A DNA stretch of 64,000 bases from an uncultured bacterium (GCA_947169285.1 CAMVPB010000005.1:545-64544); one strand, 5' to 3'. Positions 1 through 62,235 are shown, counted from the stretch's first letter. The notes: generated by a model from the sequence alone, not told the origin. Numbers and translations are program-made.

Positions 1-1644
<1,644 letters not shown>

Positions 1645-1882
1645 AAGAATTCTAAGGATACTCCTTAGTCACCGAAATCTTGTATGCGAAGCGTACAAGA
1701 TATCTAGGGGGTTATATATCTTGGATACCATGATATATTATTTAATAAGTAAATAAAATTATGACTTTATAGACTCTAAATGCGCTATATATTTTAGGCT
1801 ATTTAAGAAAGCCAATAAGGTTAAGCTTGACACAGCGTATCAAATGTGATATAATAAAACCAATTTTTAAGGGGGAATTTTA

Positions 1883-2599
1883 ATGATAATTCAAAGTTTA
1901 AATATGGACATGTTAATGCCAGATGATCAAATAGAATATGAAAAACAAAAAGAAGAAGAAAGACGCAAAAAATTAAAATCAGAAATGGAAGAAATTATAT
2001 GCGAAAAATTTTCTGATAAAGATTTAAGTGAAATACAACACTATAAGAAAGAAATATTTGATTATTTAGTTCTTAATGGTAATTTGGACTTAACAGATAA
2101 TACTTCAAAATTAGAAATTTTTATTAAAACTTGTTATAGAATATTAAGCAAAAAAGACGTTTCTTTAAATGAATATGTTTTATTACAATCTTTATCAAGA
2201 ACATCTAAAAATGAAGTGGCGGAGGAAATACAAAGACAATATAAAGAAGCTAAAGATATTGTAATTTCAGTTGCAACAGAAAAATGTATAGAACAAGGTG
2301 AAACAACTTTGGATGATGATTCTATTAATAAAACTGTTGATGAATTAGTTGAACAATACAAAACTGGAAATTTAGATGAAATTGGATTTAATGCTGTTTA
2401 TGAAAAATATAAAGATGAATCTAATGAAGTCAAAGCACTTATTTGTAAATCTTTAGGTTTTACTTCATTCGAGGAATTAGAAAGCAATAATTCACTTACT
2501 AACGCTATAGCAACAATTATATATTTAGAATCAAATACTGATTTAGGTTTAAATTCTCATTTGAGAGACACAAAATTAAAATTACAAAAAGTTAAATAA
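1883..2599 (+). CDS. Hypothetical acidic protein, 238 aa
   Basis: Long ORF preceded by an RBS (aagggggaa). Composition is glutamate/aspartate-rich, with no recognisable motif. Confidence 0.5.
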   Translation: MIIQSLNMDMLMPDDQIEYEKQKEEERRKKLKSEMEEIICEKFSDKDLSEIQHYKKEIFDYLVLNGNLDLTDNTSKLEIFIKTCYRILSKKDVSLNEYVLLQSLSRTSKNEVAEEIQRQYKEAKDIVISVATEKCIEQGETTLDDDSINKTVDELVEQYKTGNLDEIGFNAVYEKYKDESNEVKALICKSLGFTSFEELESNNSLTNAIATIIYLESNTDLGLNSHLRDTKLKLQKVK

Positions 2600-2651
2600 A
2601 AAATAGAAGTCACAGTTAACAATAAAAATTGTGACTTTTTAAATGGTAAAA

Positions 2652-2875
2652 TATACTCCCACAAAGAGCATGTTTTTTTACTTTTTTATATCAGGATAAG
2701 AGGTGCGGTATCGCAACACTAGAATTTAAAGATAAATTCTAGTGTTTTTGTGACACCACTTATTTTGCACTTGCAAAATTGCTCCCACAGAGCATTTTAG
2801 TTTAATGAATCTCTTTATTTAAAAGAAATAAATGCTCCCGTTTTTGATTTTTTTAGAAAATCTGTGGGAGCAAAT
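2652..2875 (+). repeat. Copy 1 of a ~220-bp interspersed structured noncoding repeat (the 220-bp repeat family)
   Basis: Aligns with 7316..7533 (inverted), 8566..8776 and 13237..13426. It contains the ctcccacaaagagc / gctcccacagagc / tctgtgggagc motifs and a hairpin acactagaattt...aaattctagtgt followed by a T-tract. Confidence 0.8.
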
Positions 2876-3107
2876 TTTCATTTAATTATCTCTTTTTTTA
2901 TCAATTTGAGAAATATTTAGACTAGTAAAAAACAAAAGATTGTGTTATATTGTATTTAGAAATGGTATTTATTAGTTGTTCTTTTAGATATAAGTGTTCA
3001 AAATAGGCTCTTGTATCGCACCATTATGGATTAAACAAACAACAAGTTTGTTTTTTTATTTGGTATAAAATTAACATTTTAGTAAATCATATTAGTGGAG
3101 GACTAAT

Positions 3108-3536
3108 ATGGGTGAAAATATAAATGCTTTAGATGAAATACACAAAGGATCATGCATGGGTTGTGACGCTATTAGTTTTGTTTTAGATAAAGTTGAAGAT
3201 AGAGAATTTAAAAGTGAACTTGAAAGTGAGTTTAATTTTTATAAATCTATTGAAAGTAGGGTAGACAAAATTTACTCAAAGTATGATGATGGGGAACCGC
3301 ATGAAACTGGAATTATGACTAAAGCTATGACTTGGTCAGGAATTGAAATGAAAACAATGAGTGATCATAGTAATTCTAAAATAGCTGAACTTTTGCTTCA
3401 AGGTGTTAACATGGGAATAATTGAGGGAAGAAGAATACTTAATAAAAAGAAAATAAATAACGAAGTAAGTAAAATAGTTTCAGAATATGTTGAAACACAA
3501 GAAAAATTTATGGAAACACTAAAAAGATATTTATAA
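3108..3536 (+). CDS. Hypothetical protein, 142 aa
   Basis: ORF with RBS (gtggaggact) upstream. No confident family assignment. Confidence 0.45.
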   Translation: MGENINALDEIHKGSCMGCDAISFVLDKVEDREFKSELESEFNFYKSIESRVDKIYSKYDDGEPHETGIMTKAMTWSGIEMKTMSDHSNSKIAELLLQGVNMGIIEGRRILNKKKINNEVSKIVSEYVETQEKFMETLKRYL

Positions 3537-3602
3537 TATCACTATAGAAAAGTGATATTTTATTTTTTTTAAAATATGTGTTAATATAATATTGGTGATA
3601 AT

Positions 3603-3962
3603 ATGAAAAAAGGTTTTACATTAGTTGAAGTATTAGTAGTAATAGTGCTTTTGTCAATAATAATTGCAATTGCCATCCCTTCTATATCAAAAATTAGAGA
3701 GAATATAATTGACAAAGAAGAACAAACACAAATAAAAGAAATTAAATCAGCAGCATCTTTTTATGCAAGAGATGAAAAAAAATCAAACTGTTGTATAACT
3801 GTTTCTGAATTAGTATCAAAAGGATATTTAAAAGGTAATGAAGAAAGTAAAGTAATTAATCCTAAAACTCATGAAGAAATAAATGTTAAAATTTATATAG
3901 ATAACAACAAAAAAATAACATATGATTATAGTGAAACTTGTGGAAATTGTGAAAACAATTAA
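3603..3962 (+). CDS. Prepilin-type N-terminal cleavage/methylation domain protein (type IV pilin/pseudopilin-like), 119 aa
   Basis: N-terminus MKKGFTLVEVLVVIVLLSIIIAIAIPS is the classic G|FTLxE prepilin leader plus hydrophobic helix. It is a lone gene with no pilus assembly neighbours. Confidence 0.6.
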   Translation: MKKGFTLVEVLVVIVLLSIIIAIAIPSISKIRENIIDKEEQTQIKEIKSAASFYARDEKKSNCCITVSELVSKGYLKGNEESKVINPKTHEEINVKIYIDNNKKITYDYSETCGNCENN

Positions 3963-4016
3963 TATTTAACTTGCTAATTATTAAATTTTATGTTATATTA
4001 CTATTGCTTTTGAAAT

Positions 4017-4092
4017 GGCGGTATTGGTGAAGTGGTAACACGGTAGATTGTGGCTCTATTATGCGTGGGTTCGATTCCCACATACCGCCCCA
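4017..4092 (+). tRNA. tRNA-His (anticodon GTG), with the extra G-1 and encoded CCA
   Basis: A cloverleaf was read by hand. Acceptor is GCGGTAT/ATACCGC with G-1 opposite C73. Anticodon stem is GTAGA/TCTAT and the loop TTGTGGC gives anticodon GTG. The T-arm is GTGGG-TTCGATT-CCCAC. Confidence 0.85.
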
Positions 4093-4248
4093 TATTGAAA
4101 TCCCGTCGAACTTTTATAGTTTGACTTGGCATATATAAGGTTTTTCGATAGAAAAACTTTTTTTGTTGTTTATAAAAGAGTGTTTAGTAATACTAAAAAC
4201 AAATAAATTATATAAAAAACATAAAATAATGGTATAATATTAATTAAT

Positions 4249-5166
4249 TTGGAGATGGAAACTATGTATAAGACAAATATTAATTTGAATTTATATAAAA
4301 CATTTTATGATGTAGCTAAATATGGTAGTATTTCAAAAGCAGCACAGTATGGATTTACATCACAACCTGCAATAAGTAAATCAATTAAAAAACTTGAAGA
4401 AGAACTTGGAGTTAAACTATTCTATAGAAATTTAAATGGAGTAGAATTAACAGATAAAGGTAAAGAACTATTATATTTTGTTGAAAAGTCATATAGTAAT
4501 TTAGTTATAGCAGAAAGAACTATGCTAGAAACTGAAAATCTTGAAAGAGGTAAACTATCTATTGGTATGCCATCTAATATTGGGTCATTTTACTTATTTG
4601 ATAAAATAATTAATTTTCATAAAAAGTATCCTAAAATAGAAATAACAATAATAACAGGTTCAACTTCACAATTAATTAATTTACTAGATTCTCACAAAGT
4701 TGATTTTGTTATAGATACTTCTCCAATTAATATAAAAAAGAATGATGAAATTAAAATAGCAAAGTTAGATGAAGTGAGTTATTGCTTTGTTGCTAAAAAT
4801 GAAAAATATAAGAATATAACTACATTAAGTGATTTAAAAGATAAACCTTTAATATTACCAATACCAGGAACAGCTAATAGAAAAGATTTAGATGAACTAT
4901 TAATAAATAAAAAAGTAGAAATAGAAAATGTTATAAATATACATACTAGTGAAATGATAATTTCAGCTGTGAAAAAAGATTTAGGAATAGGTTATATAAT
5001 TTATAATCTTATTGAAGATGATATTAAAAATAATGAATTAATAAAATTAGATATTAAAGAAGAATTACCGACTGTTCAAATAAATATTGTTTACAACAAA
5101 AATTTCTTAACAACTGCTCCTAAGAAATTTATTGAAGATTATATAGATAATAATTTCAAATTATAG
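4249..5166 (+). CDS. LysR-family transcriptional regulator (likely true start at the Met at 4264)
   Basis: N-terminal HTH region LNLYKTFYDVAKYGSISKAAQYGFTSQPAISKSIKKLEEELGVKLFYR is typical of LysR. The C-terminal substrate-binding portion is ~300 aa. A hairpin terminator follows at 5215..5250. Confidence 0.8.
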   Translation: MEMETMYKTNINLNLYKTFYDVAKYGSISKAAQYGFTSQPAISKSIKKLEEELGVKLFYRNLNGVELTDKGKELLYFVEKSYSNLVIAERTMLETENLERGKLSIGMPSNIGSFYLFDKIINFHKKYPKIEITIITGSTSQLINLLDSHKVDFVIDTSPINIKKNDEIKIAKLDEVSYCFVAKNEKYKNITTLSDLKDKPLILPIPGTANRKDLDELLINKKVEIENVINIHTSEMIISAVKKDLGIGYIIYNLIEDDIKNNELIKLDIKEELPTVQINIVYNKNFLTTAPKKFIEDYIDNNFKL

Positions 5167-5277
5167 AATCTATATTAAAAAGTTATACCTATAATTTAAA
5201 ATAATATAAAACATGAAAAACGGATATTTGTAAAAAATATCCGTTCATTTTATAATTTATTTGAAAGGAAGAAAATT

Positions 5278-6267
5278 ATGATTAAAAATTTAGGAACATT
5301 TAAAGATTTTTGCGATGGGACTTTAAAAACAGTTTTTGATGTTGGCAATAAAAAAATAATTGAAATGTCATTATTATTTAATAAAGCAGATAAAGATGTT
5401 GTATGTGTACCAACGCATCATTTCTGTAATTTAGGATGTAAGATGTGTCATTTAACTAATAAAGGATTAAATAAAAAAATGACTCCAATAAATTCAGAAG
5501 ACTTTATGGAATGTTTATATAAGTCACTAACAAAAGATAATATAAGGAAAACTGATAAAGATAAATTGCTCATATCATTTATGGGAGTGGGGGAACCTTT
5601 ATTAAATCTTAAATTAATAGAAGAAGTTTATAAAAATGAAAATATAATAAAAGAAAAATTGGGGTATAAAGATATAGGATATGCTATTGCGACTATGATG
5701 CCTAATGATAATATTTTAAAATTAAAAGAGATGGTTTGTAGATTAAATATACCACTTAAAGTTCATTTTTCATTGCATACTCCAATTGATAATGAAAGGC
5801 GTAATTTAATACCAAGCACAAACGTTTCTGTAGAGGATGCATTAGCCTATTTAGTTAATTATAGAAATAGTTTACAATCAAATAAAGAATTGATGGAAAA
5901 ATATATTAAATTACACACTACAAATGATCCGATTGAGATTCATTATACTTTAATCAAAGGAGTAAACGATCAAAAAGAGGAATTGGCTAAATTATGCGAA
6001 TTACTACATAAGTATAATATTCCAATTAAGTTTATTAGATTTAATCCAACACAAGATATGCAAAGAAGTGAAAATGAAGAAAAATGGGTCAATGAAATTT
6101 CTAATAGTGTGCCTGGACTTAGGATTAAAACATATTCTCCACCTGGTAAAGAAGTAGGTAGTTCTTGTGGTGAATTTACAAAACATTATTATCATGAAGA
6201 AATTGAAACTGAAGCTCAAAAAGAAGAATTTGAAAAATGGAAAGTAAAACATTTAGTGCTTGAATAG
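5278..6267 (+). CDS. Radical SAM enzyme of the RlmN/Cfr family (rRNA/tRNA adenine C2/C8 methyltransferase-like), 329 aa
   Basis: It has the CNLGCKMC CxxxCxxC cluster motif, an upstream Cys in VVCVPT and a C-terminal GSSCGEF. Blocks ISFMGVGEPLLNL, HFSLHTPIDNERRNLIP, IHYTLIKGVNDQ and IKFIRFNP parallel RlmN blocks, including both mechanistic cysteines. Confidence 0.7.
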   Translation: MIKNLGTFKDFCDGTLKTVFDVGNKKIIEMSLLFNKADKDVVCVPTHHFCNLGCKMCHLTNKGLNKKMTPINSEDFMECLYKSLTKDNIRKTDKDKLLISFMGVGEPLLNLKLIEEVYKNENIIKEKLGYKDIGYAIATMMPNDNILKLKEMVCRLNIPLKVHFSLHTPIDNERRNLIPSTNVSVEDALAYLVNYRNSLQSNKELMEKYIKLHTTNDPIEIHYTLIKGVNDQKEELAKLCELLHKYNIPIKFIRFNPTQDMQRSENEEKWVNEISNSVPGLRIKTYSPPGKEVGSSCGEFTKHYYHEEIETEAQKEEFEKWKVKHLVLE

Positions 6268-6281
6268 GAGGAAAAAATAAT

Positions 6282-6680
6282 ATGAATAAAGAATATATGG
6301 AAGTAAGAGAATTTCATAAAGCGTTTAATCATCCAGTTGCTGATAAGCCAACACAATTAACGTTTGAAAGGGCTAAAAAAAGATATTTGTGGATGCTAGA
6401 AGAAATAAATGAATTTATTGAAGCCGTTAAAAATAAAGATATAGTAGAACAAGCAGATGCAATGATAGATACAATTTATTTTGCCCTTGGAACTTTAGTG
6501 GAGATGGGAATTGAACCAGATGCTTTGTTTGAAATAGTTCAAAAAGCAAATATGAGTAAATTATTTCCTGATGGCAAACCTCATTATAATGAAATGGGAA
6601 AAGTAATTAAACCACAAAATTGGGAAGATCCGCATCCCAAATTAGAGCTAACCATAAAAAATATGAATAATTCTAATTAG
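6282..6680 (+). CDS. MazG-like all-alpha nucleoside triphosphate pyrophosphohydrolase family protein, 132 aa
   Basis: Acidic helix pattern LEEINEFIEAVKNKDIVEQADAMIDTIYFALG is typical of the MazG/HisE-like NTP-PPase fold. Confidence 0.5.
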   Translation: MNKEYMEVREFHKAFNHPVADKPTQLTFERAKKRYLWMLEEINEFIEAVKNKDIVEQADAMIDTIYFALGTLVEMGIEPDALFEIVQKANMSKLFPDGKPHYNEMGKVIKPQNWEDPHPKLELTIKNMNNSN

Positions 6681-6775
6681 AAAAGATATTATAAAAAAAT
6701 AAGATACTTTAATAAAAGATTTTAAGGATTGGTTTTATTTAAAAAGATACTAAAACATAGTATAATGTTATTGAG

Positions 6776-7297
6776 ATGAGCAATATGGAAACAATAGTAA
6801 TAAACAATAACAATTTGACTGATAAAGATATTAATGAATATGGTAAAAAAGTAAGAGCAGTTTTATTTGATGAAGAAAAAATATTAATATCTTGTTATGG
6901 TGGAGTTATATTATTGCCTGGTGGAAGTATTGATAAAAATGAAACTTCAGATCAAGCAATTGTAAGAGAATTAAAAGAAGAAACAGGTATTATATATAAT
7001 ATAAAAGACTTGAAAAAGTTACTAGTTGTTAAGCATTATCAACAAAATTATCTGACTAGAAATGAATCCATTAAAAATAGATTAATAAGCACTGAATATT
7101 ATATTGGAAAATATCAAGGAATTAATTTAGATGAAACTCACATGACAGATAAAGAATTAAAAGATAACTTTAATTTGAAATTAGTAAATATAAATGAATT
7201 ACAAAATTTATTAAATAAAATAACAAATAATCCAAGAAAAAATTTTTTTGATGAAGAAATAAGAGAAGTTATTCACACTTTAACTCTTAAAAAGTAA
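6776..7297 (+). CDS. NUDIX hydrolase, 173 aa
   Basis: Nudix box GGSIDKNETSDQAIVRELKEETGI fits Gx5Ex7REUxEExGU. Confidence 0.8.
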   Translation: MSNMETIVINNNNLTDKDINEYGKKVRAVLFDEEKILISCYGGVILLPGGSIDKNETSDQAIVRELKEETGIIYNIKDLKKLLVVKHYQQNYLTRNESIKNRLISTEYYIGKYQGINLDETHMTDKELKDNFNLKLVNINELQNLLNKITNNPRKNFFDEEIREVIHTLTLKK

Positions 7298-7315
7298 TAA
7301 CATTATAAAATAATA

Positions 7316-7533
7316 TGCTCCCACAGATTTTTTAAAAAAATCAAAAATGGGAGCATTTATTTCTTTTAAATAAAGAGAATAATTAAGTTAAAATGCTTTG
7401 TGGGAGCAATTTTGCAAGTGCAAAATAAGTGGTGTCATAAAAATATAGGTATTTCCTAGAAATATTTATATTTTGACACCTCATACTTATCCTGATATAA
7501 AAAAGTAATATTTTATGTATTCTATAGGAGCAA
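7316..7533 (-). repeat. Copy 2 of the 220-bp repeat family, inverted relative to copy 1
   Basis: The reverse complement aligns with 2652..2875 over about 190 bp (gacaccacttattttgcacttgcaaaattgctcccaca...aaatctgtgggagc). The internal hairpin has a different sequence but the same position and is followed by a T-tract. Confidence 0.8.
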
Positions 7534-7555
7534 AAAAATATTATTTAAAATCTTA

Positions 7556-7609
7556 TTGAAATTAATATTTGTTTTATATATAATATTAAGACATAAGGGA
7601 GGTTTTAGG
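7556..7609 (+). promoter_or_regulatory. Conserved promoter plus RBS module (TTGAAA-17-TATAAT ... acataagggagg), duplicated at 10518..10571
   Basis: Near-identical ~50-nt sequences precede two unrelated ORFs. The six-frame track reads them as a shared fake N-terminus MKLI.VL.IILRHKGGF. Confidence 0.6.
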
Positions 7610-8353
7610 ATGTTAAAATATTTGAATTATGATAATTATAACGTAGATGAAGAACTTTTAAAAATTGAAAATTGTGAAGAAGCAGAAATAGTATTAGAAC
7701 CAAGGAATAAAAAATGTTTATTTATTTTAGGGATGCTATTTGTAAATGGAGTTAAGATAAAGATCTTGAATGAAAATGATTTGAATCTTGAAGAAACAAA
7801 TAAATCATTTTCTATGATGCCATATGTATGGAGTAAAATAGGTGATAATAGTTTTCCAGCACCTGATTATTCTAATGTAAGAACCGAAATGGATAGAAGA
7901 GTAGAAAATGTTAAAAGAATGGGTTGTAAAGTAAATAGAATAGAAAACAATCCAATAGATAATAAAATATTTTTGATTTGTCCTGTAAGAAATGCTACTG
8001 AAGAACAAAGAAAATGGATTGAAAACTTTACTAAAGAGAAATATAACAACGGATATATAATTCATGCTCCACATCTTCATACAAGACAAACGGATTTGTT
8101 TGGCGGATATGCTATATGCAAACAAAATGCAGAGGCAGTAGCTACTTCTGAAGAAATTTACATATACTATGATCAATCAAGTACAGGTAGTGTATTTGAT
8201 TTAGGAGTGGCTTATGCATTACATAAACCATTAAAAGTATTAAATAAAGAAGAAATAGTTTTTAATGAAGATGATTTCATAGATAATATTGTAAAGACTT
8301 GGCCTTATAATTTAAAGACAAAAGTAAGAACTTTATCTAAAGAAAATATGTAA
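7610..8353 (+). CDS. Hypothetical protein with C-terminal nucleoside 2-deoxyribosyltransferase-like (NDT/Rcl-like) domain, ~247 aa from internal ATG
   Basis: Motifs KIFLICPVRNATEEQ and DQSSTGSVFDLGVAYALHKPLKV resemble the NDT-family GP-loop and DxGTxFExG(Y/A)A blocks. The start is placed after the conserved promoter/RBS module. Confidence 0.5.
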   Translation: MLKYLNYDNYNVDEELLKIENCEEAEIVLEPRNKKCLFILGMLFVNGVKIKILNENDLNLEETNKSFSMMPYVWSKIGDNSFPAPDYSNVRTEMDRRVENVKRMGCKVNRIENNPIDNKIFLICPVRNATEEQRKWIENFTKEKYNNGYIIHAPHLHTRQTDLFGGYAICKQNAEAVATSEEIYIYYDQSSTGSVFDLGVAYALHKPLKVLNKEEIVFNEDDFIDNIVKTWPYNLKTKVRTLSKENM

Positions 8354-8504
8354 AGAGAATCTGCACTTATGTTTTAAAAAATTGACTTTGCAAAATCAAA
8401 AAAATATGATAATATTAGTTCAGTTAGTAATATATACTACTATTTTAAAGCATTATCTTGTTGCTCTACACAATTAAGATACGTGCTATAATGTTATTAG
8501 CGAT

Positions 8505-8565
8505 TAGTTGTATTAGCAACTTTCTTTAAAAGCAATAAGTTTTAAATCATCTTATTTATTGCTTA
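8505..8565 (+). repeat. Short palindromic repeat (agttgtattagcaact ... gcaataag-N-cttatttattgc), second copy at 14497..14557
   Basis: Direct sequence similarity between the two loci. Both lie just downstream of a gene. Confidence 0.55.
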
Positions 8566-8776
8566 CTAAAGAGCGTGTTTTTTTAACTATTTATATGAGA
8601 GCTGCGGTATCACAACACTAGAATTTGTTTGTAAATTCTAGTGTTTTTGTGACATCAATCTTATTTTGCGCTTGCAAAATTGCTCCCTAGAAATAATGTA
8701 CTTAATATTTATTGCCTTAAATACTAATGAAAATTGTTCCCAAAATGTCATTTTTTTGAAAAATGCGAGGGAGTAA
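8566..8776 (+). repeat. Copy 3 of the 220-bp repeat family
   Basis: Shares aaagagcgtgttttttt, gcggtatcacaacactagaattt...aaattctagtgtttttgtgaca, ttgcgcttgcaaaattgctccc and a gagggag right end with copies 1 and 4. Confidence 0.75.
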
Positions 8777-8875
8777 CTTTTTAACTGCTTTCCAAAATAT
8801 TTGACTTATTTTTTTGTTTACAATCATAATAAATATACTTATAATATTTTTGTAAAAAGGTGTATTATGCAAAAA

Positions 8876-8970
8876 GATAATATGCTAAAGCGCTAAATAA
8901 AGAAATTATTTATTACACTGATTTAAAAGAAGAAAATTTAGAAACTCAAATTCGAAAAAAATTAGTCTAG
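8876..8970 (+). pseudogene. Remnant 3' end of an NDT-like gene (YAKALNKEIIYYTDLKEENLETQIRKKLV*), duplicate of 11545..11640
   Basis: About 90% nucleotide identity to the 3' end of the frameshifted NDT-like gene at 11292..11637. The following attttaaagagtgttatttgatattaaaggag junction is shared as well. Confidence 0.6.
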
Positions 8971-9008
8971 ATTTTAAAGAGTGTTATTTGATATTAAAGG
9001 AGAAAATT

Positions 9009-9752
9009 ATGATGAATGTAAACAAAGAATTAATTGAGTATGTAGAAAATAATATAAAACCCATATATGTAAACAACAATTATGCTGGTCATGGTTGGGA
9101 ACATATTCAAAATGTAATAAGTCGTAGTTTTGAGTTAATGGAAAAATTCAAGTTAGAAATTAACCCTAATATGGTTTATGTTATAGCAGCATATCATGAT
9201 ATTGGTTATAAAGAAAATCCTGAAAATCATGAACAAGTATCAAGTGAAATGTTTTTACAAAATAAAGAAATTCAACATTTTTTTAGTGAAGAAGAAAATA
9301 GAATAATTGCTGAAGCTATAGTAGATCATAGAGCAAGTTTAGAATATGAAGCAAGAAGTGTCTACGGAAAATTAGTTTCCTCTGCTGATAGAGCTATTGA
9401 TGTTAATAATATGTTAGAAAGGTCAATTTCTTTTCAATATGAAAAGCATAAATTAGAAAATCCAACGATTCAAGATATTATTGAATATTCTTATAAGAAA
9501 CTATCAAGTAAATATGGAAATGGTGGATATGCTAAAATGTATTTTCAAGATGATAAATATTTAGAATATTTAAAAAAAGTGAATTTATTATTTTCAGACA
9601 AAGAAGAATTTATTAAAGCAGAGATGAATATTATTGCTAATAATTCACAATTATTACAAAAAATATATGTGAATCCAGAATTGAGAACATTATTAGAAGA
9701 TAAAGAAAAGAACATAAGTACTAAAAGAGTATATATAAAAAATAAAAAATGA
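9009..9752 (+). CDS. HD-domain metal-dependent phosphohydrolase, ~247 aa
   Basis: H...HD signature (GHGWEHIQNV ... VIAAYHDIGY). Start ATG at 9009 after RBS aaaggag; the track's TTG start at 8988 is less likely. Confidence 0.65.
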   Translation: MMNVNKELIEYVENNIKPIYVNNNYAGHGWEHIQNVISRSFELMEKFKLEINPNMVYVIAAYHDIGYKENPENHEQVSSEMFLQNKEIQHFFSEEENRIIAEAIVDHRASLEYEARSVYGKLVSSADRAIDVNNMLERSISFQYEKHKLENPTIQDIIEYSYKKLSSKYGNGGYAKMYFQDDKYLEYLKKVNLLFSDKEEFIKAEMNIIANNSQLLQKIYVNPELRTLLEDKEKNISTKRVYIKNKK

Positions 9753-9798
9753 AAACATAAATTTATTGATTATGTTAGGGTAAATATAGGAGGATTTT

Positions 9799-10503
9799 AT
9801 GAAAAAAATAACAGAGTTATTTATGGCTTATAAAAACGATTTTGCTAATAGTAATTTAAAAGATAATGAATTAATAGAGTTTGTAATGCCTTTTAACTTT
9901 TCTGATTTAAGCGATGTTGTTAATGGAAATATATTTTTAAAAAGCTATAATCAAAAAATATCAATAAAAGAATCATTAGATTTATTAGATTTATCAATAA
10001 AAAATAATAATAGGATAAGAGTGTGGACTAGTCATGTTGACCCTGATTATTATTTGTTTTTATTATTTATATGTTTTTATGTAAAGAATAAGATTGAATG
10101 TTTAGAAGTCTTTTATTCTGATGAATACAAAAGTGAATGTACAAGTACCGGAATGATGACTTCAAAAGAATTAGATAAATTATCATTGATGGGTCATAAA
10201 ATAGAAAAAAATGAAATAGAAGAATATGCTAATAAATGGGAGTCTTTAATTCAAGATGGAAGTAAAATACATATTTTCGAGAATAATGAATTAATTGGTG
10301 TGCCATATGATTATATTTATGAACAAATAATAGATTTCATAAAAAAAGAAAACAAAGTTAAAGTTGTTGAAATAGTTTTTGAATTTTCAAAAAAATATAA
10401 TATTGATGTTGATTATTTAATAAAGCAACTAATAGAAGATAAAAAGATTAAAGTATTAGAAAGCAATGAAATATTTTCTAAAATCATTGTTGGATTAAGT
10501 TAA
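9799..10503 (+). CDS. Hypothetical protein, 234 aa
   Basis: ORF with RBS (taggagga). No recognisable motif. Confidence 0.45.
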   Translation: MKKITELFMAYKNDFANSNLKDNELIEFVMPFNFSDLSDVVNGNIFLKSYNQKISIKESLDLLDLSIKNNNRIRVWTSHVDPDYYLFLLFICFYVKNKIECLEVFYSDEYKSECTSTGMMTSKELDKLSLMGHKIEKNEIEEYANKWESLIQDGSKIHIFENNELIGVPYDYIYEQIIDFIKKENKVKVVEIVFEFSKKYNIDVDYLIKQLIEDKKIKVLESNEIFSKIIVGLS

Positions 10504-10571
10504 TCTTAAATGAAATTGTATTGAAATTAATAAAAGTGTTGTGTATAATATTGAGACATAAGGGAGGATTT

Positions 10572-11189
10572 ATGGATTTTATTAAAAAAAATGAGTCTTG
10601 TGAAAAATTTTATTCTGTTGACTATGATAAAGAGAAGTTAAATGAAATTTTAGAAAAGTTAAAAAACTATAATTATACGGCAATTGGTAAAGGCGAGATG
10701 GGTGGAGTAACTAATTGGCCTGCTACAGAGAAAAATATAAAAAGAAGAGTTACATCTTTCTTTAATGCTTGTATGCATGACCAAAATGCAACATTACATC
10801 CAGAGACAATAGTGCGTCATGATGATGACTATGTTTCATATGAATATTCTTATAATAAATTACCGGATCTATATGATTATATTGATTTAATTGTAAATAC
10901 ACAAAACCCTTTTAAACATAAAAGATTGTTTAAGAATTTTAGTGATGCTTATATTTGCTTTCACTGGGATCAAATAGTATTAGAAGGATTGCTAAATTAT
11001 GCAAATTCCCCAGAATTAACAAATCATAATTCTATAGAAAATAGTGAATCAAGTAAAGAAGAGTATGATTATAAAGGATTAAATGAATTATATATAGAGA
11101 CATTAAAATGTTTCAATTTCAATTTAATAGCAGTCAAAGAATATTTAAAAGAACCAAAATCAGTGAATGTTTTATCTTTAAAAAAATAA
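10572..11189 (+). CDS. Hypothetical protein, ~205 aa (start at internal ATG after the conserved promoter/RBS module)
   Basis: Preceded by the same TTGAAA-17-TATAAT ... taagggagg module as 7610. No recognisable family. Confidence 0.45.
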   Translation: MDFIKKNESCEKFYSVDYDKEKLNEILEKLKNYNYTAIGKGEMGGVTNWPATEKNIKRRVTSFFNACMHDQNATLHPETIVRHDDDYVSYEYSYNKLPDLYDYIDLIVNTQNPFKHKRLFKNFSDAYICFHWDQIVLEGLLNYANSPELTNHNSIENSESSKEEYDYKGLNELYIETLKCFNFNLIAVKEYLKEPKSVNVLSLKK

Positions 11190-11291
11190 ATTATTTGGTC
11201 ATAGTATAAAACAAAAACTATGGCTTTTTAATTGTTATATTAAAATTAGAATCATGATATAATAAAAAAGTAATTTGAAAGTTGGTGTGAA

Positions 11292-11637
11292 ATGAAAATA
11301 ATAACAGTTTGTGGAAGTTTAAGATTTTTTAAAGAAATGATGGAAATAACTGAAAAGAAGGAATTAGAGGGTAATTGTATGTTAGTTCCAATTTATAATC
11401 CTTTAAAACCAAATAAAGATAATTATAGTGAGAAAGGATGCACTTATGTTGGATAAGATGCATAAAGAAAGAATTAAACTATCTGATGCTATTTTAGTTG
11501 TTAATGTTAATAACTATATTGGTGATAGTACTAAAAGTGAAATAGAATATGCTAAATCATTAAATAAAGAAATTATTTATTACACTGATTTAAAAGAAGA
11601 AAGCTTAGAAACTAAAATTCGAAAAAAATTAGTTTAA
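11292..11637 (+). pseudogene. Frameshifted nucleoside 2-deoxyribosyltransferase-like gene (two overlapping ORFs 11292..11457 and 11428..11637)
   Basis: N-terminal part MKIITVCGSLRFFKEM... and C-terminal part LSDAILVVNVNNYIGDSTKSEIEYAKSLNKEIIYY together fit the NDT-family pattern but lie in different frames. Confidence 0.5.
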
Positions 11638-11677
11638 ATTTTAAAGAGAGTTATTTGATATTAAAGGAGGAATTGAT

Positions 11678-12277
11678 ATGAAATTAATTTTAACATCTAG
11701 AGTGTTCGGTGATGCTATTGCAACTGAAAAAGTATTAAATGAATTAAATATGGATATTTCAAAAGCAAAAATACTTTTAATAGCAACTCCAAGATTGCCT
11801 TATGAAGGGCCAGAAAGTTCTTTTGAAAGTTTAGTTTATTGGGGATTTAAAGAAGAAAACATCGTAATATTTGATCATAATAAAGCAGAAGAATATTGTA
11901 ATTTAGATATAGATATTATTTATGTTACAGGAGGAAACACTTTTACAGGTTTAAAATTACTTAAAGAATGCAGATTTGATAAAGAAATTATTAAATATAT
12001 AAATAATGGCGTAATCTATTTAGGAAAAAGTGCTGGTTCACATATAGTATCTAAAAATATTGAACATGTTATAGGATTTGATCCAAATGAAGTAGGGTTA
12101 ACTGACTTTGAAGGGTTAGGATTATTTAATGGAATATTAGTTTGTCATTATAGTGATGAAAGAAAACCATGTTATGATAGATTATTATCAGAAAAAAAGT
12201 ATCCTGTGTATACTTTAACTGACCAAGATATGATAGTGTATGATGATAGTTTAGTAAAAAAATTAAAAAAGTATTAA
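11678..12277 (+). CDS. Peptidase S51 (dipeptidase E-like) family protein, 199 aa
   Basis: IIYVTGGNTFTGLKLL ... GVIYLGKSAGSHIV matches the S51 GGNTF / SAGS serine motif. Confidence 0.55.
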   Translation: MKLILTSRVFGDAIATEKVLNELNMDISKAKILLIATPRLPYEGPESSFESLVYWGFKEENIVIFDHNKAEEYCNLDIDIIYVTGGNTFTGLKLLKECRFDKEIIKYINNGVIYLGKSAGSHIVSKNIEHVIGFDPNEVGLTDFEGLGLFNGILVCHYSDERKPCYDRLLSEKKYPVYTLTDQDMIVYDDSLVKKLKKY

Positions 12278-12367
12278 GAGAAGATTTTACAAATAAAAAT
12301 ATTTGTGTTAATATGTGATTAGAAAAATCTTATATTTTTCTTTATGAGTTTAGCAATAGTTAAATTA

Positions 12368-12403
12368 TTGCCCCAGAAGGAAATCCGCTCGAACTTTTCG
12401 AGC
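12368..12403 (+). other. Degenerate direct repeat of the tRNA-His 3' end plus downstream hairpin (att-like); gctcgaacttttcgagc is a perfect hairpin
   Basis: gccccaGAAGGaaatccGCtcgaactttt versus gccccaTATTGaaatccCGtcgaactttt at 4087..4114 matches at about 25 of 29 positions, in the same orientation. Confidence 0.55.
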
Positions 12404-12465
12404 TTATATACAACTAATTCAGAAATGGATTAGTTTTTGGTTGTTAGAAACTATCCTAAGAAAGG

Positions 12466-12732
12466 ATGGTATTTATGGTAAATATTATTAAGCAAGAAGT
12501 TGTTATTGAAGAATCATTAAAGAAGAAGTTAAAACTAATATGTGAGTTTTCAAATACTACTTTAAAAATAATAAATGGTAGTATAAGAAAAATTGAAAAT
12601 AATAATCAAATTAGAGAAATAACTGAAGAAAATAGGAATGGATTCGATTTAATAGAAAAAGCAGAAAAAGAAATAAAATATATGGAAGGCCACAAAAAAC
12701 GCTTACAAAATAAATTATTAGTCATAGTTTAA
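12466..12732 (+). CDS. Hypothetical protein, 88 aa
   Basis: ORF with upstream RBS (aggatgg). Lysine/glutamate-rich with a coiled-coil-like composition. Confidence 0.4.
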   Translation: MVFMVNIIKQEVVIEESLKKKLKLICEFSNTTLKIINGSIRKIENNNQIREITEENRNGFDLIEKAEKEIKYMEGHKKRLQNKLLVIV

Positions 12733-12827
12733 AATATAATAAAAACTATGACTTTTTAAATGGGATATACTTGACTTTTTAAGAAAAAAGCAGTATAATA
12801 TGGCCACATTTTAAGGAGGAAATTAGA

Positions 12828-13163
12828 ATGAGAACTCGTGTACCTGATAATCCACATCCAGTACCAATGCCGGATATGGATAATTTTAGCGAAGAAGAAA
12901 TAGATGATTTGTTAATAGACAATTTTTTAAAGAAATTAGAAGTTCATTCACATACGCCTAGAAATCCGCATCCAGTACCAATGCCGGATATGGATAATTT
13001 TAGCGAAGAAGAAATAGATGATTTGTTAATAGACAATTTTTTAAAGAAATTAGAAGTTCATTCACATGCGCCTAGAAATCCGCATCCAGTACCAATGCCA
13101 TCAATAGAAACAGATTATCAATCAAAAAAAGTTAAAAGAAGAATTAGAAGATTACTTAAATAG
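12828..13163 (+). CDS. Tandem-repeat protein (repeated 38-aa unit RNPHPVPMPDMDNFSEEEIDDLLIDNFLKKLEVHSH.P), 111 aa
   Basis: ORF with RBS (aaggagga). It contains a perfect 114-bp tandem duplication. Confidence 0.5.
   Translation: MRTRVPDNPHPVPMPDMDNFSEEEIDDLLIDNFLKKLEVHSHTPRNPHPVPMPDMDNFSEEEIDDLLIDNFLKKLEVHSHAPRNPHPVPMPSIETDYQSKKVKRRIRRLLK
12852..13103 (+). repeat. Tandem direct repeat, 114-bp unit x ~2.2, near-identical copies
   Basis: Units start at 12852, 12966 and 13080. Copies are identical except for single bases (acgcct versus gcgcct). Confidence 0.85.
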
Positions 13164-13236
13164 TTGTATGTTTTGACATGTAGCAAGGTTTGAAAAAAAT
13201 CTTGCTTTTGTTTGGGACTTAGATGATCAAAAATTT

Positions 13237-13426
13237 TTGCTCCCTCGAAAAGCATTTTTTATGCTATTTTTAATATCAGGATAAGAGGTGGTATCACATT
13301 ACTAAGATTTACCCATAAATCCTAATAATTTGTGACTCCAAACTTATATTTTATGTTTTTTTGACTCAAACGCTAACAACTTTTACTCCCAAAATGACTT
13401 TTTTTTGAAAAAGTTGAGGGAGCAAA
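13237..13426 (+). repeat. Copy 4 of the 220-bp repeat family (most diverged)
   Basis: ttgctccctcgaaaagcatttttt ... atatcaggataagaggtg ... a hairpin, then ttgtgac ... gttgagggagcaaaa. The end motifs co-vary (ccctcgaa/ttgaggg here versus cccacaaag/ctgtggg in copy 1). Confidence 0.7.
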
Positions 13427-13560
13427 AAATATAAATATAATAAAAATAATTGAAGAATTTTATAAAATGAATAGTAATTTTTTCAAATTATAAGATATAA
13501 CTTTAAATTTGACTTTAAGTCTCTGCTTTGATATAATATATAGCTATTAAGAGGGGGTTT

Positions 13561-14400
13561 ATGAGTGAAATTAATAAAGTTTTAAATGATGAATCAAAAA
13601 ATGATAAAGAACTAATTAAAGAGCTTAGTGTTTACGTTAAAAATCATAAGAATAAAAAGTTGCCAATAAATAAAGAATTTGTTAAAGGTATAATTGATAT
13701 ATCTTTGAGAAATAGTGAAGTTGACTTTAAAAAAATAGAATTTGTTAATGACATGAGTATTGGAGCTTCTTGGTTACCTGAAAGTATGGGGTTAGAATTT
13801 AATCTTACAGGAGCATTAAAATATGCTAGATTATTGAAAGATTATAGGTTTCATTCGAAAGTTGGTGATAACGATATATTTTTATATTATTCAGTTATAG
13901 AATTTGTAATTCATGAACTCACTCACGCAAGACAATATTACGTTAATTTGATAGAGAAAAACGAGGTTTATAATTCTTGTGAAGAATTAATTGAAAAAAA
14001 ATATGATGTATACCGAGTAAACCACGATAAAGTATTGATAGAAAGATATGCGCATTTAAGAGGTCATACGCTTGCATACGAGGTATTATCTTATATTTAT
14101 TCTATGGAGCAAATTCAAGAATTTAGAAGAATAATATATGTTTATTTGTTAATGGGATACAAAGTAAATCATAACGGGGATACTATTTCTGCTTTAGATA
14201 AATACAATGAATTAATGAAAGAAAACTCATTGCCAATAGTTAATATTGATTCTAATGATGATATGACATTATATGATAGACTTTATTTAGGACTTCCAAT
14301 AAGTACATTAGAATATCATAGATTAAAGCTCTTATATGCAGATATTTGGCATAATGATGACAAAACTCAAAGAGTAAAAACATTAATTAATAAATTATAA
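13561..14400 (+). CDS. Hypothetical protein with HExxH motif (IHELTHARQ), possible zinc metallopeptidase-like, 279 aa
   Basis: ORF with RBS (gagggggttt) and an HELTH motif. No further family assignment. Confidence 0.4.
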   Translation: MSEINKVLNDESKNDKELIKELSVYVKNHKNKKLPINKEFVKGIIDISLRNSEVDFKKIEFVNDMSIGASWLPESMGLEFNLTGALKYARLLKDYRFHSKVGDNDIFLYYSVIEFVIHELTHARQYYVNLIEKNEVYNSCEELIEKKYDVYRVNHDKVLIERYAHLRGHTLAYEVLSYIYSMEQIQEFRRIIYVYLLMGYKVNHNGDTISALDKYNELMKENSLPIVNIDSNDDMTLYDRLYLGLPISTLEYHRLKLLYADIWHNDDKTQRVKTLINKL

Positions 14401-14496
14401 AAGGATTTTAAAAAAGATATTGATTAACACAAACCAATATTTTTTCTTTTGAAAAGACTTTGACATTTATATAATTTATGATATTATGTTTATAGA

Positions 14497-14557
14497 AATT
14501 AGTTGTATTAACAACTTTCTTTAAAGATGGTAAGTTTTAAATCATCTTATTTGTTGC
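14497..14557 (+). repeat. Second copy of the short palindromic repeat seen at 8505..8565
   Basis: ttagttgtattaacaactttctttaaa...taagttttaaatcatcttatttgttgc, compared with 8505..8565. Confidence 0.55.
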
Positions 14558-14841
14558 CCAAATAAAAAAATAATGTCGCATAATGCGACTTTTTTTATTG
14601 GGGCTATAAATAAAATTATTCTTATAAAAAAGTGTTTTTGAATTATTTTGACTATAATATATATAGAGGAGACATAATATGAATAATGGAATAAAAAATG
14701 AAACTGAAATTGTTAATAGCATAAATGGCAAGAAGTTTAATGAATTAAATTAATAATTTTTGCTTTTAAATGTAAAATTTTTAAATCTTTAATATTTTTT
14801 TAATAAAAGATAGTAAAATTATTTTTGAAAGGAAGAAAAAT

Positions 14842-16596
14842 ATGAAAAGAATAACAAAAAATATAATTATGAGTATAGTATTAATTATATGTGTGATTGG
14901 AATGATACTTACAATTAATTATTATTCATCAAGTTCAAACAATAATGATGCTAGTGGTCAAATTCAAATGGGAGGGACTCCACCAGAGATGCCATCTGGT
15001 GAAAATGATAGTAATATGGGAACACCTCCAGAAAAGCCAGAAGGAAATGCAAACAGTGAATTTCAAAATACGCCTCCGGAGATGCCATCAAATGATAATT
15101 CGAATATGAAAACTCCACCGGAAATGTCACTTGAAAATAATACTGAATCATCGGTCTTAAAGTATCTTTTAATTGGTGGTATTAGTTTATTGGGAAGTTT
15201 AGATATATTATATTTAATATTATCTAAATTTAACAAAAGAACTTTAAAAGAAACTTTTTCATCATCTGATAAAATAGTAATATATTTTTTGGGAACAATT
15301 ATTTTAACTGGATGTTTAACTTTTGGAGTAAATCGTTTATCTAATAATATGATTTCATCAAATGCTAATCAAAATATGCCTGGTGGTGGAATGAATAGTA
15401 GGTCCGTTTCATATTCATCTCAAAAGGAAATAACAAGTGATGAAACAATAACAAATGGAAATTATACTTCATCATCATCTGATGAAAATGCAATTTTAGC
15501 TACTGGAGATATTGAAGTAAATATTTCTAATGTAACTGTCACAAAAACTGGAGACTCTGATGGAGGAGATTCTACAAGTTTTTATGGAACTAATTCTGGT
15601 GTACTTGCTAAAAGTGGGGCAAATGTAACAATAAAAAATGCTACTATTGAAACTAATGCAACTGGAGCTAACGGTGTATTTAGTTATGGTGGCTCTGCTA
15701 CTACAAGTAATTCAACAAGTGATGGAACAACTATAAATATAAGTGACTCAAAAATAACTACAACTAAAGATAACTCTGGAGGTATTATGACTACTGGTGG
15801 AGGTATTATGAATGCTACTAATCTAGAAATAAATACTGCAGGTACTTCTTCTGCAGCAATTAGATCTGATAGAGGAGGAGGCACTGTAAATGTTAATGGT
15901 GGAACTTATAAAACAACTGGACAAGGTTCACCAACCATTTATTCAACTGCAAATATTACAGTAAAAAATGCAACACTTGAAGCTACTGCATCAGAAGGAG
16001 TCGTTATCGAAGGAAAAAATAGTGTAGTATTAGATAGCTGTACTTTAACAGATACAAATAATAAATTAAATGGACAATCTACTACATATAAAAATATATT
16101 CTTATATCAATCAATGAGTGGAGATGCTGATACTGGAACTGCAGAGTTCACTGCCAAAAATAGTACAATCACTACAAATAAAGGTGACACTTTATATGTT
16201 ACAAATACAACTGCCTCTATAACTCTAGAAAATAACACTATAGTTAATAATGATTCTACTGGTAACTTTTTAAGAATTCAAAAAGATTCTTGGGGAAAAA
16301 GTGGTTCAAATGGCGGAGATGTAACGTTAAATCTCACAAATCAAAAAGCAATAGGCAATATAGTGGTTGACTCAATATCAACTTTAAAAATGACTGTTAA
16401 TGATAATTCTTATTATGAAGGCTCTATTAATAGTGATAATACAGCTAAATCAATCGCCATAGTATTAGATAAAACTTCTAAAATAAAATTAACTTCTAAT
16501 AGTTATGTAACATTGTTTGAAAATGCTGATTCAACTAATAGTAATATAGATTTTAATGGATATAAACTATATGTTAATGGTTCATCTATAAATTAA
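14842..16596 (+). CDS. Secreted/cell-surface repeat protein, 584 aa (N-terminal TM/signal, TPPEMP proline-rich repeats, Ser/Thr/Asn-rich beta-solenoid-like C-terminal region)
   Basis: Hydrophobic N-terminus with repeated GTPPEMPS / NTPPEMPS / KTPPEMS motifs. A second TM segment is followed by a long T/S/N/G-rich region with repeated NxT(I/V) patterns. Confidence 0.6.
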   Translation: MKRITKNIIMSIVLIICVIGMILTINYYSSSSNNNDASGQIQMGGTPPEMPSGENDSNMGTPPEKPEGNANSEFQNTPPEMPSNDNSNMKTPPEMSLENNTESSVLKYLLIGGISLLGSLDILYLILSKFNKRTLKETFSSSDKIVIYFLGTIILTGCLTFGVNRLSNNMISSNANQNMPGGGMNSRSVSYSSQKEITSDETITNGNYTSSSSDENAILATGDIEVNISNVTVTKTGDSDGGDSTSFYGTNSGVLAKSGANVTIKNATIETNATGANGVFSYGGSATTSNSTSDGTTINISDSKITTTKDNSGGIMTTGGGIMNATNLEINTAGTSSAAIRSDRGGGTVNVNGGTYKTTGQGSPTIYSTANITVKNATLEATASEGVVIEGKNSVVLDSCTLTDTNNKLNGQSTTYKNIFLYQSMSGDADTGTAEFTAKNSTITTNKGDTLYVTNTTASITLENNTIVNNDSTGNFLRIQKDSWGKSGSNGGDVTLNLTNQKAIGNIVVDSISTLKMTVNDNSYYEGSINSDNTAKSIAIVLDKTSKIKLTSNSYVTLFENADSTNSNIDFNGYKLYVNGSSIN

Positions 16597-59717: not shown

Positions 59718-59794
59718 GGCGATGTAGCTCAGCTGGTTAGAGCGCACGGTTCATACCCGTGAGGTCGTGAGTTCGATCCCCACCGTCGCTACCA
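59718..59794 (+). tRNA. tRNA-Met (anticodon CAT), elongator type, CCA encoded
   Basis: Hand-folded cloverleaf. Acceptor GGCGATG/CGTCGCT, D-arm GCTC-AGCTGGTTA-GAGC, anticodon stem CACGG/CCGTG with loop TTCATAC, T-loop TTCGATC. Confidence 0.85.
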
Positions 59795-59806
59795 ATATGA
59801 TAAGAA

Positions 59807-59866
59807 GCTCGAACTTTTTTGTTTCGAGAGTAATAAATTGCTAACTAGAAATAGTTAGTTTTTTTG
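59807..59866 (+). terminator. Two hairpins after tRNA-Met: gctcgaa-ctttttgt-ttcgag, then ctaact-agaaat-agttag plus T-tract
   Basis: Inverted repeats read directly from the sequence. The first shares the tcgaactttt motif with 4105..4114 and 12390..12399. Confidence 0.6.
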
Positions 59867-59880
59867 TACTTTTAAAGAAA

Positions 59881-60180: not shown

Positions 60181-60336
60181 ATGTTTATAATAAAGAATCA
60201 ATAAAAGAAGAAGTATCTTCGGAAATGGAGGTACATCATGATTAGACTGAAGAATCAGTTATTTAAAAATATTTATATAAGCGTTTTAAGAGGAGTTAAT
60301 GCCCTATGTCAGTAGGATGTTGACCCCTCTTTTTAA

Positions 60337-62235
<1,899 letters not shown>

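Follow-up and report, generated by a model that had tools for sequence, protein, structure and literature searches.

We analyzed a stretch of 64,000 nucleotides from an uncultured bacterium (GCA_947169285.1, CAMVPB010000005.1:545-64544; hereafter the window), in which a degenerate direct repeat, with its first copy at the 3' end of a tRNA-His gene, had been predicted to enclose an 8.3-kb island lacking its own integrase. The locus has a tandem layout, where tRNA-His (4018-4092) is followed by island A (4093-12377; 8,285 bp), island B (12378-14556; 2,179 bp) and an older flank from 14557 onwards. Island A, the element in question, starts at 4093 and directly abuts the intact tRNA-His 3' end, with all of its tabulated cargo genes located on the plus strand.

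Boundaries of island A and its tandem neighbor

The two repeat copies, GCCCCATATTGAAATCCCGTCGAACTTTT at 4087-4115 and GCCCCAGAAGGAAATCCGCTCGAACTTTT at 12370-12398, are identical at 24 of 29 positions in direct orientation, compared to about 25 of 29 in the original prediction. In first-order Markov simulations of the whole window (n = 300), no site on either strand matched the first 29-mer at more than 22 of 29 positions, a value reached once, confirming that the two-site repeat is real. Likewise, the sub-pattern GAAATCCNNTCGAACTTTT has two exact occurrences in the window versus 0.25 expected, both being the repeat copies, and TCGAACTTTT has three (4106, 12389 and 59809) versus 0.11 expected, each of them behind a CCA junction. 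The direct repeat of a classic tyrosine-integrase tRNA island typically comprises at least 15 nt of the tRNA 3' segment. Here, the tRNA-derived part consists of GCCCCA only (6 nt, 4087-4092), whereas the other 23 nt lie downstream of the tRNA CCA and belong to the island left end. The repeat therefore sits at the tRNA-His 3' end as predicted, but it differs from the duplicated tRNA segment that classic integration leaves behind. The remaining 23 nt match because a further island of this family, now decayed, lies in tandem, and its conserved left end starts at 12378. The repeat is a 6-nt tRNA copy closing island A together with a homologous left-end module opening island B. Base composition showed no GC or skew step at either boundary of island A, with the GC content being about 0.21-0.27 over 1-15000.

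Comparison with related contigs yielded breakpoints at both repeat copies, bearing out the prediction that these delimit a horizontally acquired island at the tRNA-His 3' end. From the CCA onwards, the left end is the same in five upstream contexts (the window, L003, L023, L025 and L027), with the DNA upstream being unrelated. It follows complete tRNA-Gly(TCC) and tRNA-Gly(GCC) genes in L023 and L025, respectively, and the remnants ...AATTGCTCCA and ...AGTTGCTCCA (shared ...TTGCTCCA) in L003 and L027, respectively. In L001, an ENA scaffold, a different tRNA-His gene precedes the same 87 bp. At the right boundary the window equals L001 from about 12272 through 12379 (...AAATTATTGCCCCAGA) and is unrelated beyond. 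Transfer of the island between hosts is evident from its LysR and radical S-adenosylmethionine (SAM) genes, which share 95% identity between the window and L001. The whole tRNA-His stretch reaches just 89%, even though the flank downstream of it that is counted in is identical, and the two acceptor stems are not the same.

Contigs of the same species (L016-L019; 99.5% identical to the window over 3442-4101) lack 4093-14556, and their tRNA-His runs straight into TATGTAAATTAGTCGCACCATGCGACTTTTTT, a GTCGCACCATGCGAC-type hairpin, whose equivalent in the window is the flank at 14557-14600. L016 and L017 do not match the window again until 14758, and L020 exhibits a third arrangement behind the same tRNA. 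The predicted extent of 8.3 kb agrees with island A, whereas the DNA that is extra relative to the same-species contigs amounts to 10.46 kb and comprises two islands.

Island B carries left and right ends of the same family and stands in tandem with island A at the same target. Its left end shares 80% identity with that of an intact L029 island encoding a large serine recombinase (LSR). Behind it, a tblastn search with the 90-codon open reading frame (ORF90) of L001 as query matched 12475-12606 with 50% identity over 44 aa. The right end (14479-14556) is homologous to the right end of the L029 island and ends ...TTGTTGCCCA, followed by the GTCGCATAATGCGAC hairpin and a T-run. Within a 111-aa ORF of island B we observed a 114-bp unit in two tandem copies (12849-13076) that are 98% identical.

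Large serine recombinases at tRNA CCA ends

The absence of an integrase between the repeats was upheld by Pfam scans and tblastn. No recombinase was detected by Pfam in the 15 larger ORFs (≥54 aa) of 4249-12277, where four short ORFs, mostly antisense overlaps, were not scanned. Neither was a recombinase domain found in 11 scanned ORFs of at least 50 aa in 4093-14757 (one, 11428-11637, overlapping), nor a tyrosine-recombinase domain in 19 ORFs scanned across 1-16.6 kb. Pfam and tblastn revealed no relaxase or LSR in island A of the window. With four recombinases of the family as tblastn queries, the window yielded matches only at 1-1641 and 60355-62232, and no remnant in 4093-14757.

Between its 87-bp left end and the LysR gene, the L001 copy of the island encodes ORF90 and a 635-aa LSR, in which Resolvase, Recombinase and Zn-ribbon domains were recognized; both ends of this copy are identical to those of island A in the window. 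Judged by sequence, island A derives from an LSR element without being a full member, given the LSR in the same island of L001. The recombinase of the family is an LSR, not a tyrosine integrase.

The nearby recombinase of the window, an LSR at <1-1644, lies outside island A as had been noted; apparently it is part of another island further upstream, which would terminate 1 kb ahead of tRNA-His. Its right end would be at about 2960-3023, a segment that aligns with the B-type right ends at 14479-14556 and L029 8140-8213 in one four-sequence alignment. This LSR is 54% identical to the island-A LSR of L001, 61-63% to the LSRs of L029 and L022, and 44% to the LSR of the tRNA-Met element in the window. 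It is a candidate helper and not a part of island A. The upstream LSR forms one subclade with the LSRs of L001, L029 and L022, while a second subclade comprises the tRNA-Met LSR along with P0126, P0164 and P0181. Beside the LSR of L022, which is 63% identical to the upstream LSR, a remnant junction ends ...CGCACCA, like the probable right end at 2960-3023.

The tRNA-Met element is apparently an intact integrative mobilizable element (IME) of the same family. Here, tRNA-Met (59718-59794) is followed by a left end with TCGAACTTTT at 59809-59818, ORF94 (59896-60180), the LSR (60355-62235) and a Mob_Pre relaxase (62351-63739). The left-end module, comprising CCA, 14-15 nt and CGAACTTTT, is invariant in eight aligned left ends; at these eight loci CGAACTTTT is located at the start of a first hairpin, and a second hairpin with a T-run follows. 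In island A the motif begins 14 nt past the CCA. In L030-32 the loop is a variant (CGGACACTTT) and the stem is unchanged, which indicates conservation of the hairpin by covariation. In other genomes CGAACTTTT is also found behind tRNA-Thr, tRNA-Gly and tRNA-Leu. TCGAACTTTT and CGAACTTTT are an island-end motif and not a generic terminator.

Homologues of the LSR amount to at least 7,912 proteins at E≤1e-30. To assess the tRNA linkage, loci were picked solely by homology to the tRNA-Met LSR of the window (three proteins, 60-67% identical). A same-strand tRNA gene (Thr-GGT, Gly-GCC, Gly-TCC or Leu-CAA) ends about 100 bp upstream of a ~90-codon ORF at 10 of the 11 informative loci, and the 11th displays a ...GGCTCCA remnant junction. 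Wherever the contig extends upstream, the ~90-codon ORF is located about 200 bp before the LSR; ORF90 itself gave no Pfam match and no fold match. Identical copies of protein P0181 occur after Gly-GCC, Gly-TCC and a remnant with the common end GCTCCA, and identical copies of P0164 after Leu-CAA and Thr-GGT with the common end GGCACCA. The pair of LSR and Mob_Pre is present in the tRNA-Met island of the window, L029, L030-32 and L041-44. As the core common to both ends, we found GCCCCA in the window and CGCTCCA in L029; the exchange would take place within or next to the CCA, since the same left end follows GCC-CCA and GCT-CCA. Between the ~90-codon ORF and the LSR we noted a leader of 170-190 bp (window 60181-60354; L001 5120-5308). 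Both leaders share GGAGGTACATCATGAT (by eye, unaligned), and the leader may encode a short upstream ORF or function as regulatory RNA.

Tandem arrangements were also observed in the relatives. L003 corresponds to an L023-type site (tRNA-Gly-TCC, then the LysR island) with a 6.5-kb recombinase-free insert exactly at the CCA, the right end of the insert being ...AATTGCTCCA. L029 contains a complete 8.2-kb island with LSR and Mob_Pre and CGCTCCA on both sides, with a second ORF90-LSR island directly behind it. In L001, a second junction of ...TTGCCCCA with GATA is located at 15669. The recombinase-less junction between left end and LysR is the same in L003, L023, L025 and L027, with a close variant in the window, and is thereby found at three or more different tRNA genes. 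This distribution suggests mobilization in trans as the simplest explanation. In line with the original prediction, island A looks like a decayed or trans-mobilized element.

Features of the locus and mosaic cargo

Table 1. Coordinates of the features at the tRNA-His locus, of the tRNA-Met element and of the repeat element copies. Positions refer to the window unless a relative is named.
Feature	Position	Strand	Evidence or remark
LSR, N-terminus cut by the window start	1-1644	+	Pfam Recombinase, Zn_ribbon_recom, Resolvase
Probable B-type right end of upstream LSR island, ends ...TATCGCACCA, then hairpin and T-run	2960-3023	+	
tRNA-His (GTG), intact, encoded CCA, attachment site	4018-4092	+	ARAGORN; Rfam RF00005, 64 bits
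Island A left end, 87 bp, two hairpins, TCGAACTTTT at 4106-4115	4093-4179	+	
LysR-family regulator (cargo)	4264-5166	+	Pfam HTH_1, LysR_substrate
RlmN/Cfr-like class A radical SAM methylase without N-terminal domain (cargo)	5278-6267	+	
MazG-like PRA-PH protein	6282-6680	+	Pfam
NUDIX hydrolase	6776-7297	+	Pfam
Repeat element copy (~230-bp family), cassette boundary	7288-7503	+	
Nucleoside deoxyribosyltransferase-like ORF, weak	7556-8353	+	Pfam Nuc_deoxyrib_tr, E 0.0015, below cut-off
B-type island right-end remnant without CCA, inside island A	8484-8562	+	84% identical to 14479-14557
Repeat element copy (~230-bp family)	8570-8801	-	
HD-domain protein	8988-9752	+	Pfam
DUF3658 protein	9799-10503	+	Pfam
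222-aa ORF	10521-11189	+	
Short remnants	11292-11637	+	
S51 peptidase-like protein	11678-12277	+	Pfam
Island A right end, ends ...AAATTATTGCCCCA; 6-nt tRNA-His 3' copy at 12372-12377	12268-12377	+	
Decayed island B left end, two hairpins, TCGAACTTTT at 12389-12398 (second repeat copy)	12378-12465	+	
Truncated ORF90-family gene	12466-12732	+	Homology limited to first 44 codons
Island B interior: tandem 114-bp repeats (12849-13076), repeat element copy (13219-13425), 279-aa ORF without family match	12733-14478	+	
Island B right end, B-type, ...CTTATTTGTTGCCCA	14479-14556	+	Aligns with L029 island right end
Displaced terminator-type flank, GTCGCATAATGCGAC and T-run	14557-14600	+	
Intact family member at tRNA-Met, runs off the window	59718-63739	+	
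Other ~230-bp repeat copies in the window	2647-2900, 13219-13425	-	
~230-bp repeat copies in relatives	L001 9291-9537, 10553-10817; L003 2560-2703, 10989-11238; L027 287-551		

Compared to L001, island A has gained 6267-7290 (MazG, NUDIX) and 8802-12267 (HD protein through S51 peptidase), and it is missing ORF90 and the LSR, a KTSC gene and a 115-aa ORF. The MazG and NUDIX cassette (6282-7297) is missing from both L001 and L003, where window position 6266 joins 7291 directly; the cargo at 8988-12277 is missing from L001, which jumps from the equivalent of window position 8801 to 12268. For the LysR gene, the nucleotide identity to L001 and L003 is 95-97%. Copies of a structured ~230-bp repeat (7288-7503, plus strand; 8570-8801, minus strand) flank the gained segments and contain the motifs GCTCCCACAGA..., GGGAGCAATTTTGCAAGTGCAAAAT, a GTGTCAC/GTGATACC hairpin and CTTATCCTGATA. 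This repeat has no Rfam match, its core motif gave no match beyond 8.7 kb, and all copies seen in the window lie within the first 14 kb in both orientations, with none seen beyond the island region. It could be a miniature inverted-repeat transposable element or a cassette-exchange site.

The B-type right-end remnant at 8484-8562 indicates that island A is composite. In addition, upstream regions are duplicated: 8873-9010 and 11540-11677 match over 138 nt with 90% identity, and 7537-7607 and 10502-10572 over 71 nt with 80% identity, including a promoter-like site and a ribosome-binding site. The location of these duplications before different cargo genes suggests shuffling of cassettes with a putative portable expression module. 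L004 contains a 2.7-kb island after tRNA-Gly(GCC) (4054-6760, minus strand junctions) with a B-type left end, which holds the LysR, radical SAM and MazG genes in inverted orientation, showing that cargo modules move between island scaffolds. In L013, an Erysipelotrichaceae metagenome-assembled genome, a 71%-identical pair of LysR and radical SAM genes directly follows the CCA of tRNA-Leu(CAA) (8912-9050). This site has a single hairpin without CGAACTTTT and may be an older or different insertion.

The radical SAM protein (5278-6267) scored 95 bits with the NCBIfam RlmN model (cut-off 290) and matched Cfr and RlmN entries of the PDB with E 7e-14 to 1e-9. The CX3CX2C motif is present (C50/C54/C57 cluster) and both mechanistic cysteines (C43, C297) are kept. 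A Cfr resistance gene was rejected, as the NCBIfam Cfr models gave 67-75 bits versus cut-offs of 468-550. In several relatives (L001, L003-L006, L012 and L013) LysR precedes and MazG follows the radical SAM gene, and in some metagenomic homologues (P0059, P0074, P0087 and P0116) the radical SAM protein is fused to a dCMP deaminase domain. Its substrate may be a nucleotide rather than rRNA.

Other classifications of the island were rejected. The cargo was not classed as a defence system, since PADLOC returned sub-threshold matches only (pVip, E 0.0017; NUDIX PDC-S07; Cas3-HD). For a phage origin, a megablast search of 3500-13500 against a phage collection gave no match and the left-end pattern had zero viral hits; scans of viral contigs with two LSRs recovered only L021 (30% identical) and L022 (54%). 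As for structured RNA, Rfam at the gathering and E≤1 thresholds reported the tRNAs and two chance-level hits. Exact look-up of six window proteins gave no record for five of them, the pilin-like protein alone being matched.

The B-type right end contains an outward promoter-like site (14460-14487; TTGACA, 16 nt, TATTAT, with TG) ~70 bp before the CCA junction, and a weaker one is located at the internal remnant (8465-8492; TCTACA, 16 nt, TATAAT, with TG). A promoter scan of the window found 137 sites versus 127 expected from shuffles, not above chance. By analogy with Tn4451, there is only a hint that the outward site may read into ORF90 and the LSR after circularization.

Origin and movement of island A

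The tRNA 3' ends are described as targets of tyrosine integrases in a review of IMEs, where serine-recombinase IMEs insert within dispensable protein genes and generate very short repeats (PMC5704250). The same review defines accretion as well as CIMEs (cis-mobilizable elements) and presents a three-step scenario of integration, decay and accretion, which fits the layout of tRNA-His, island A, island B and old flank. Island A has no integration or transfer genes but has retained the two recombination ends of a known family of elements. We conclude that 4093-12377 is probably an integrase-less, CIME-like derivative of an integrative, often mobilizable, family whose insertion, precisely at the 3'-terminal CCA of tRNA genes, would be catalyzed by an LSR. 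This builds on the boundaries, the tandem layout, the lack of a recombinase in islands A and B, the LSR in the copy of a relative and the tRNA linkage of the family. The LSR would catalyze insertion by recombining attP with attB, and island A would move via an LSR supplied in trans.

A complete element would comprise, following the tRNA CCA, a ~90-bp left end (14-15 nt, the CGAACTTTT hairpin and a second terminator hairpin), then a ~90-codon gene without a fold match and, after a conserved leader, the LSR. In many cases a Mob_Pre relaxase would come next, then the cargo, and the right end would close with 6-7 nt copied from the tRNA terminus. Insertion would leave the tRNA intact and supply a new terminator. 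Each newcomer would enter at the same CCA and push older islands away from the tRNA, so that island A would be the newest arrival, followed by the decayed island B and the older terminator flank. The 6-7-nt tRNA copy of the right end and the CGAACTTTT region of the left end may serve as recombinase-binding arms, and occupied sites may stay targets because island left ends mimic one another, while ORF90 may act as a directionality factor or regulator. The reconstructed attP would read ...AAATTATTGCCCCA joined to TATTGAAATCCCGTCGAACTTTT..., and the predicted circle junction ...GTTAAATTATTGCCCCA joined to TATTGAAATCCCGTCGAAC... Deletion of island A is predicted to leave tRNA-His...CCGCCCCA joined to GAAGGAAATCCGCTCGAAC, and deletion of both islands ...CCGCCCCA joined to AATAAAAAAATAATGTCGC. 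The left-end TCGAAC and the tRNA T-loop GTTCGA were considered as mirror-image LSR half-sites around the CCA, an idea weakened by the unequal spacing and by the same LSR and left end following a tRNA-Leu with a GTTCAA T-loop (L041).

Several observations weigh against this reading. The comparison with relatives proposed along with the original prediction identified L016-L019 as lacking both islands, but no strictly empty attB was found, and neither was an excised circle or an attP junction. The circle junction between the right and left ends of island A was not seen in metagenome hits, and a scan of viral contigs was empty. The hairpin behind the tRNA in L016 resembles the left end of another island subtype (L029 8214) and, by this resemblance, may be an older island remnant rather than the native flank. 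The L003 copy has no recognizable right end within 10 kb, and the reconstructed attP exhibits no convincing dyad symmetry. For tandem accretion, island left ends would have to be accepted as B' arm, since canonical LSRs pair attP with attB and do not use attL-like sites. Furthermore, the internal right-end remnant and the repeat elements at the cassette edges imply that homologous recombination also shaped island A. In principle, the recombinase-less form may instead spread by gene conversion or recombination between resident islands.

It is unlikely that island A is a static decayed remnant, which came with ORF90 and the LSR, lost them and became immobile, and which reached the other tRNA sites by homologous recombination or gene conversion. 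Such an origin would account for the mosaic with ~230-bp repeats and duplicated promoter regions at cassette boundaries, and it agrees with the right-end remnant inside the island, the L003 copy devoid of a right end and the circle junction not being found. However, the same recombinase-less junction is present at no fewer than three tRNA genes with the breakpoint exactly at the CCA each time, and homologous exchange needs shared flanks upstream of the CCA, where the DNA is unrelated; the 87-bp left end would also offer little substrate for it. We regard a classic tyrosine-integrase tRNA island, from which the integrase was later deleted and for which the link to the LSR is coincidental, as highly improbable. 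Although the tRNA 3' position and the direct repeat are its usual signature, and tRNA 3' ends are assigned to tyrosine integrases (PMC5704250), the repeat holds just 6 nt of tRNA, the ORFs scanned across 1-16.6 kb lack a tyrosine-recombinase domain, the L001 copy has an LSR directly after the tRNA, and a tRNA is located about 100 bp upstream at 10 of 11 loci picked by LSR homology. The chance that the match is a mere terminator-type motif shared behind tRNA-like ends, delimiting no island, is negligible: TCGAACTTTT also stands behind tRNA-Met in the window and, by eye, the 3' strand of the hairpin containing the motif co-varies between loci, but comparative breakpoints coincide with both copies, the 10.46 kb from tRNA-His to 14556 are missing from same-species contigs and the motif is confined to island left ends. 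The original prediction had named a widespread motif unrelated to tRNA-His as a refutation, and in one half this applies, as the motif is not specific for tRNA-His and follows tRNA-Met, -Thr, -Gly and -Leu too; it marks island ends, however.

Like the accretion of CIMEs and elements related to ICESt1 and ICESt3 (PMC5704250), island A stands in tandem with a related element at one target, with the newest adjoining the target. Described CIMEs depend on tyrosine integrases and have longer direct repeats, whereas here an LSR and a 6-7-nt core ending in CCA are found and the integrase-less form occurs at several different tRNA genes. The closest analogue are the Dehalococcoides ssrA islands (PMC3146451), which have a serine-recombinase module by attL, are arranged in tandem downstream of a small stable-RNA gene, are bounded by RNA 3'-end repeats and carry highly variable cargo, 15 of 31 islands having no integration module. 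They differ in the tmRNA target, the 20-bp repeat and the insertion in the T-loop region, in contrast to many tRNA genes and the very CCA end here, as well as in their module, which has the CcrB-like DsiB with a small DsiA and further genes, all encoded on the reverse strand, instead of a single LSR and a ~90-codon gene. Island A is not a member of this group, the resemblance being one of analogy only.

Tn4451 and Tn4453 of Clostridia (TnpX LSR, TnpZ Mob_Pre) likewise combine an LSR near one end with a relaxase in a low-GC Firmicute host and have a very short identical core at both ends (PMC5704250). In contrast to the family described here, Tn4451 has low target specificity, a GA core and no tRNA targeting, and is devoid of ORF90 or a conserved tRNA-terminator-like left end; island A in turn has neither LSR nor relaxase. 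The tycheposons of Prochlorococcus (bioRxiv 10.1101/2020.12.28.424599) are cargo islands at tRNA genes with tandem junctions and an LSR in 27 of 937, but they are overwhelmingly tyrosine-recombinase elements of marine cyanobacteria with an unrelated module architecture. In a large atlas of LSRs (PMC10083194), targets are classed by protein gene clusters and tRNA is not mentioned at all. In the literature searched we found no description of this tRNA-CCA LSR family, although one may still exist.

The chances are about even that the elements represent an essentially undescribed and abundant LSR family of Firmicutes in the human and animal gut (≥7,900 homologues), with the tRNA CCA end as attB, specificity provided mainly by the last 6-7 nt, several tRNAs potentially used per enzyme, occupied sites tolerated so that tandem arrays build up, and integrase-less cargo mobilized in trans. 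Tools that seek a tyrosine integrase along with a long tRNA repeat would miss such islands, as would LSR surveys classing targets by protein-coding gene clusters. If activity is confirmed, LSRs with a natural attB at a tRNA end and a short core would be attractive as landing-pad-free integrases. An RlmN/Cfr-like radical SAM enzyme that travels with LysR and nucleotide hydrolases on a mobile element is a noteworthy cargo. If true, the family would break the textbook split that directs tyrosine integrases to tRNA genes and serine integrases to protein-coding genes. The locus itself illustrates how a tRNA CCA end can serve as a stacking site where complete LSR elements, decayed remnants and integrase-less cassettes accumulate and exchange between hosts.

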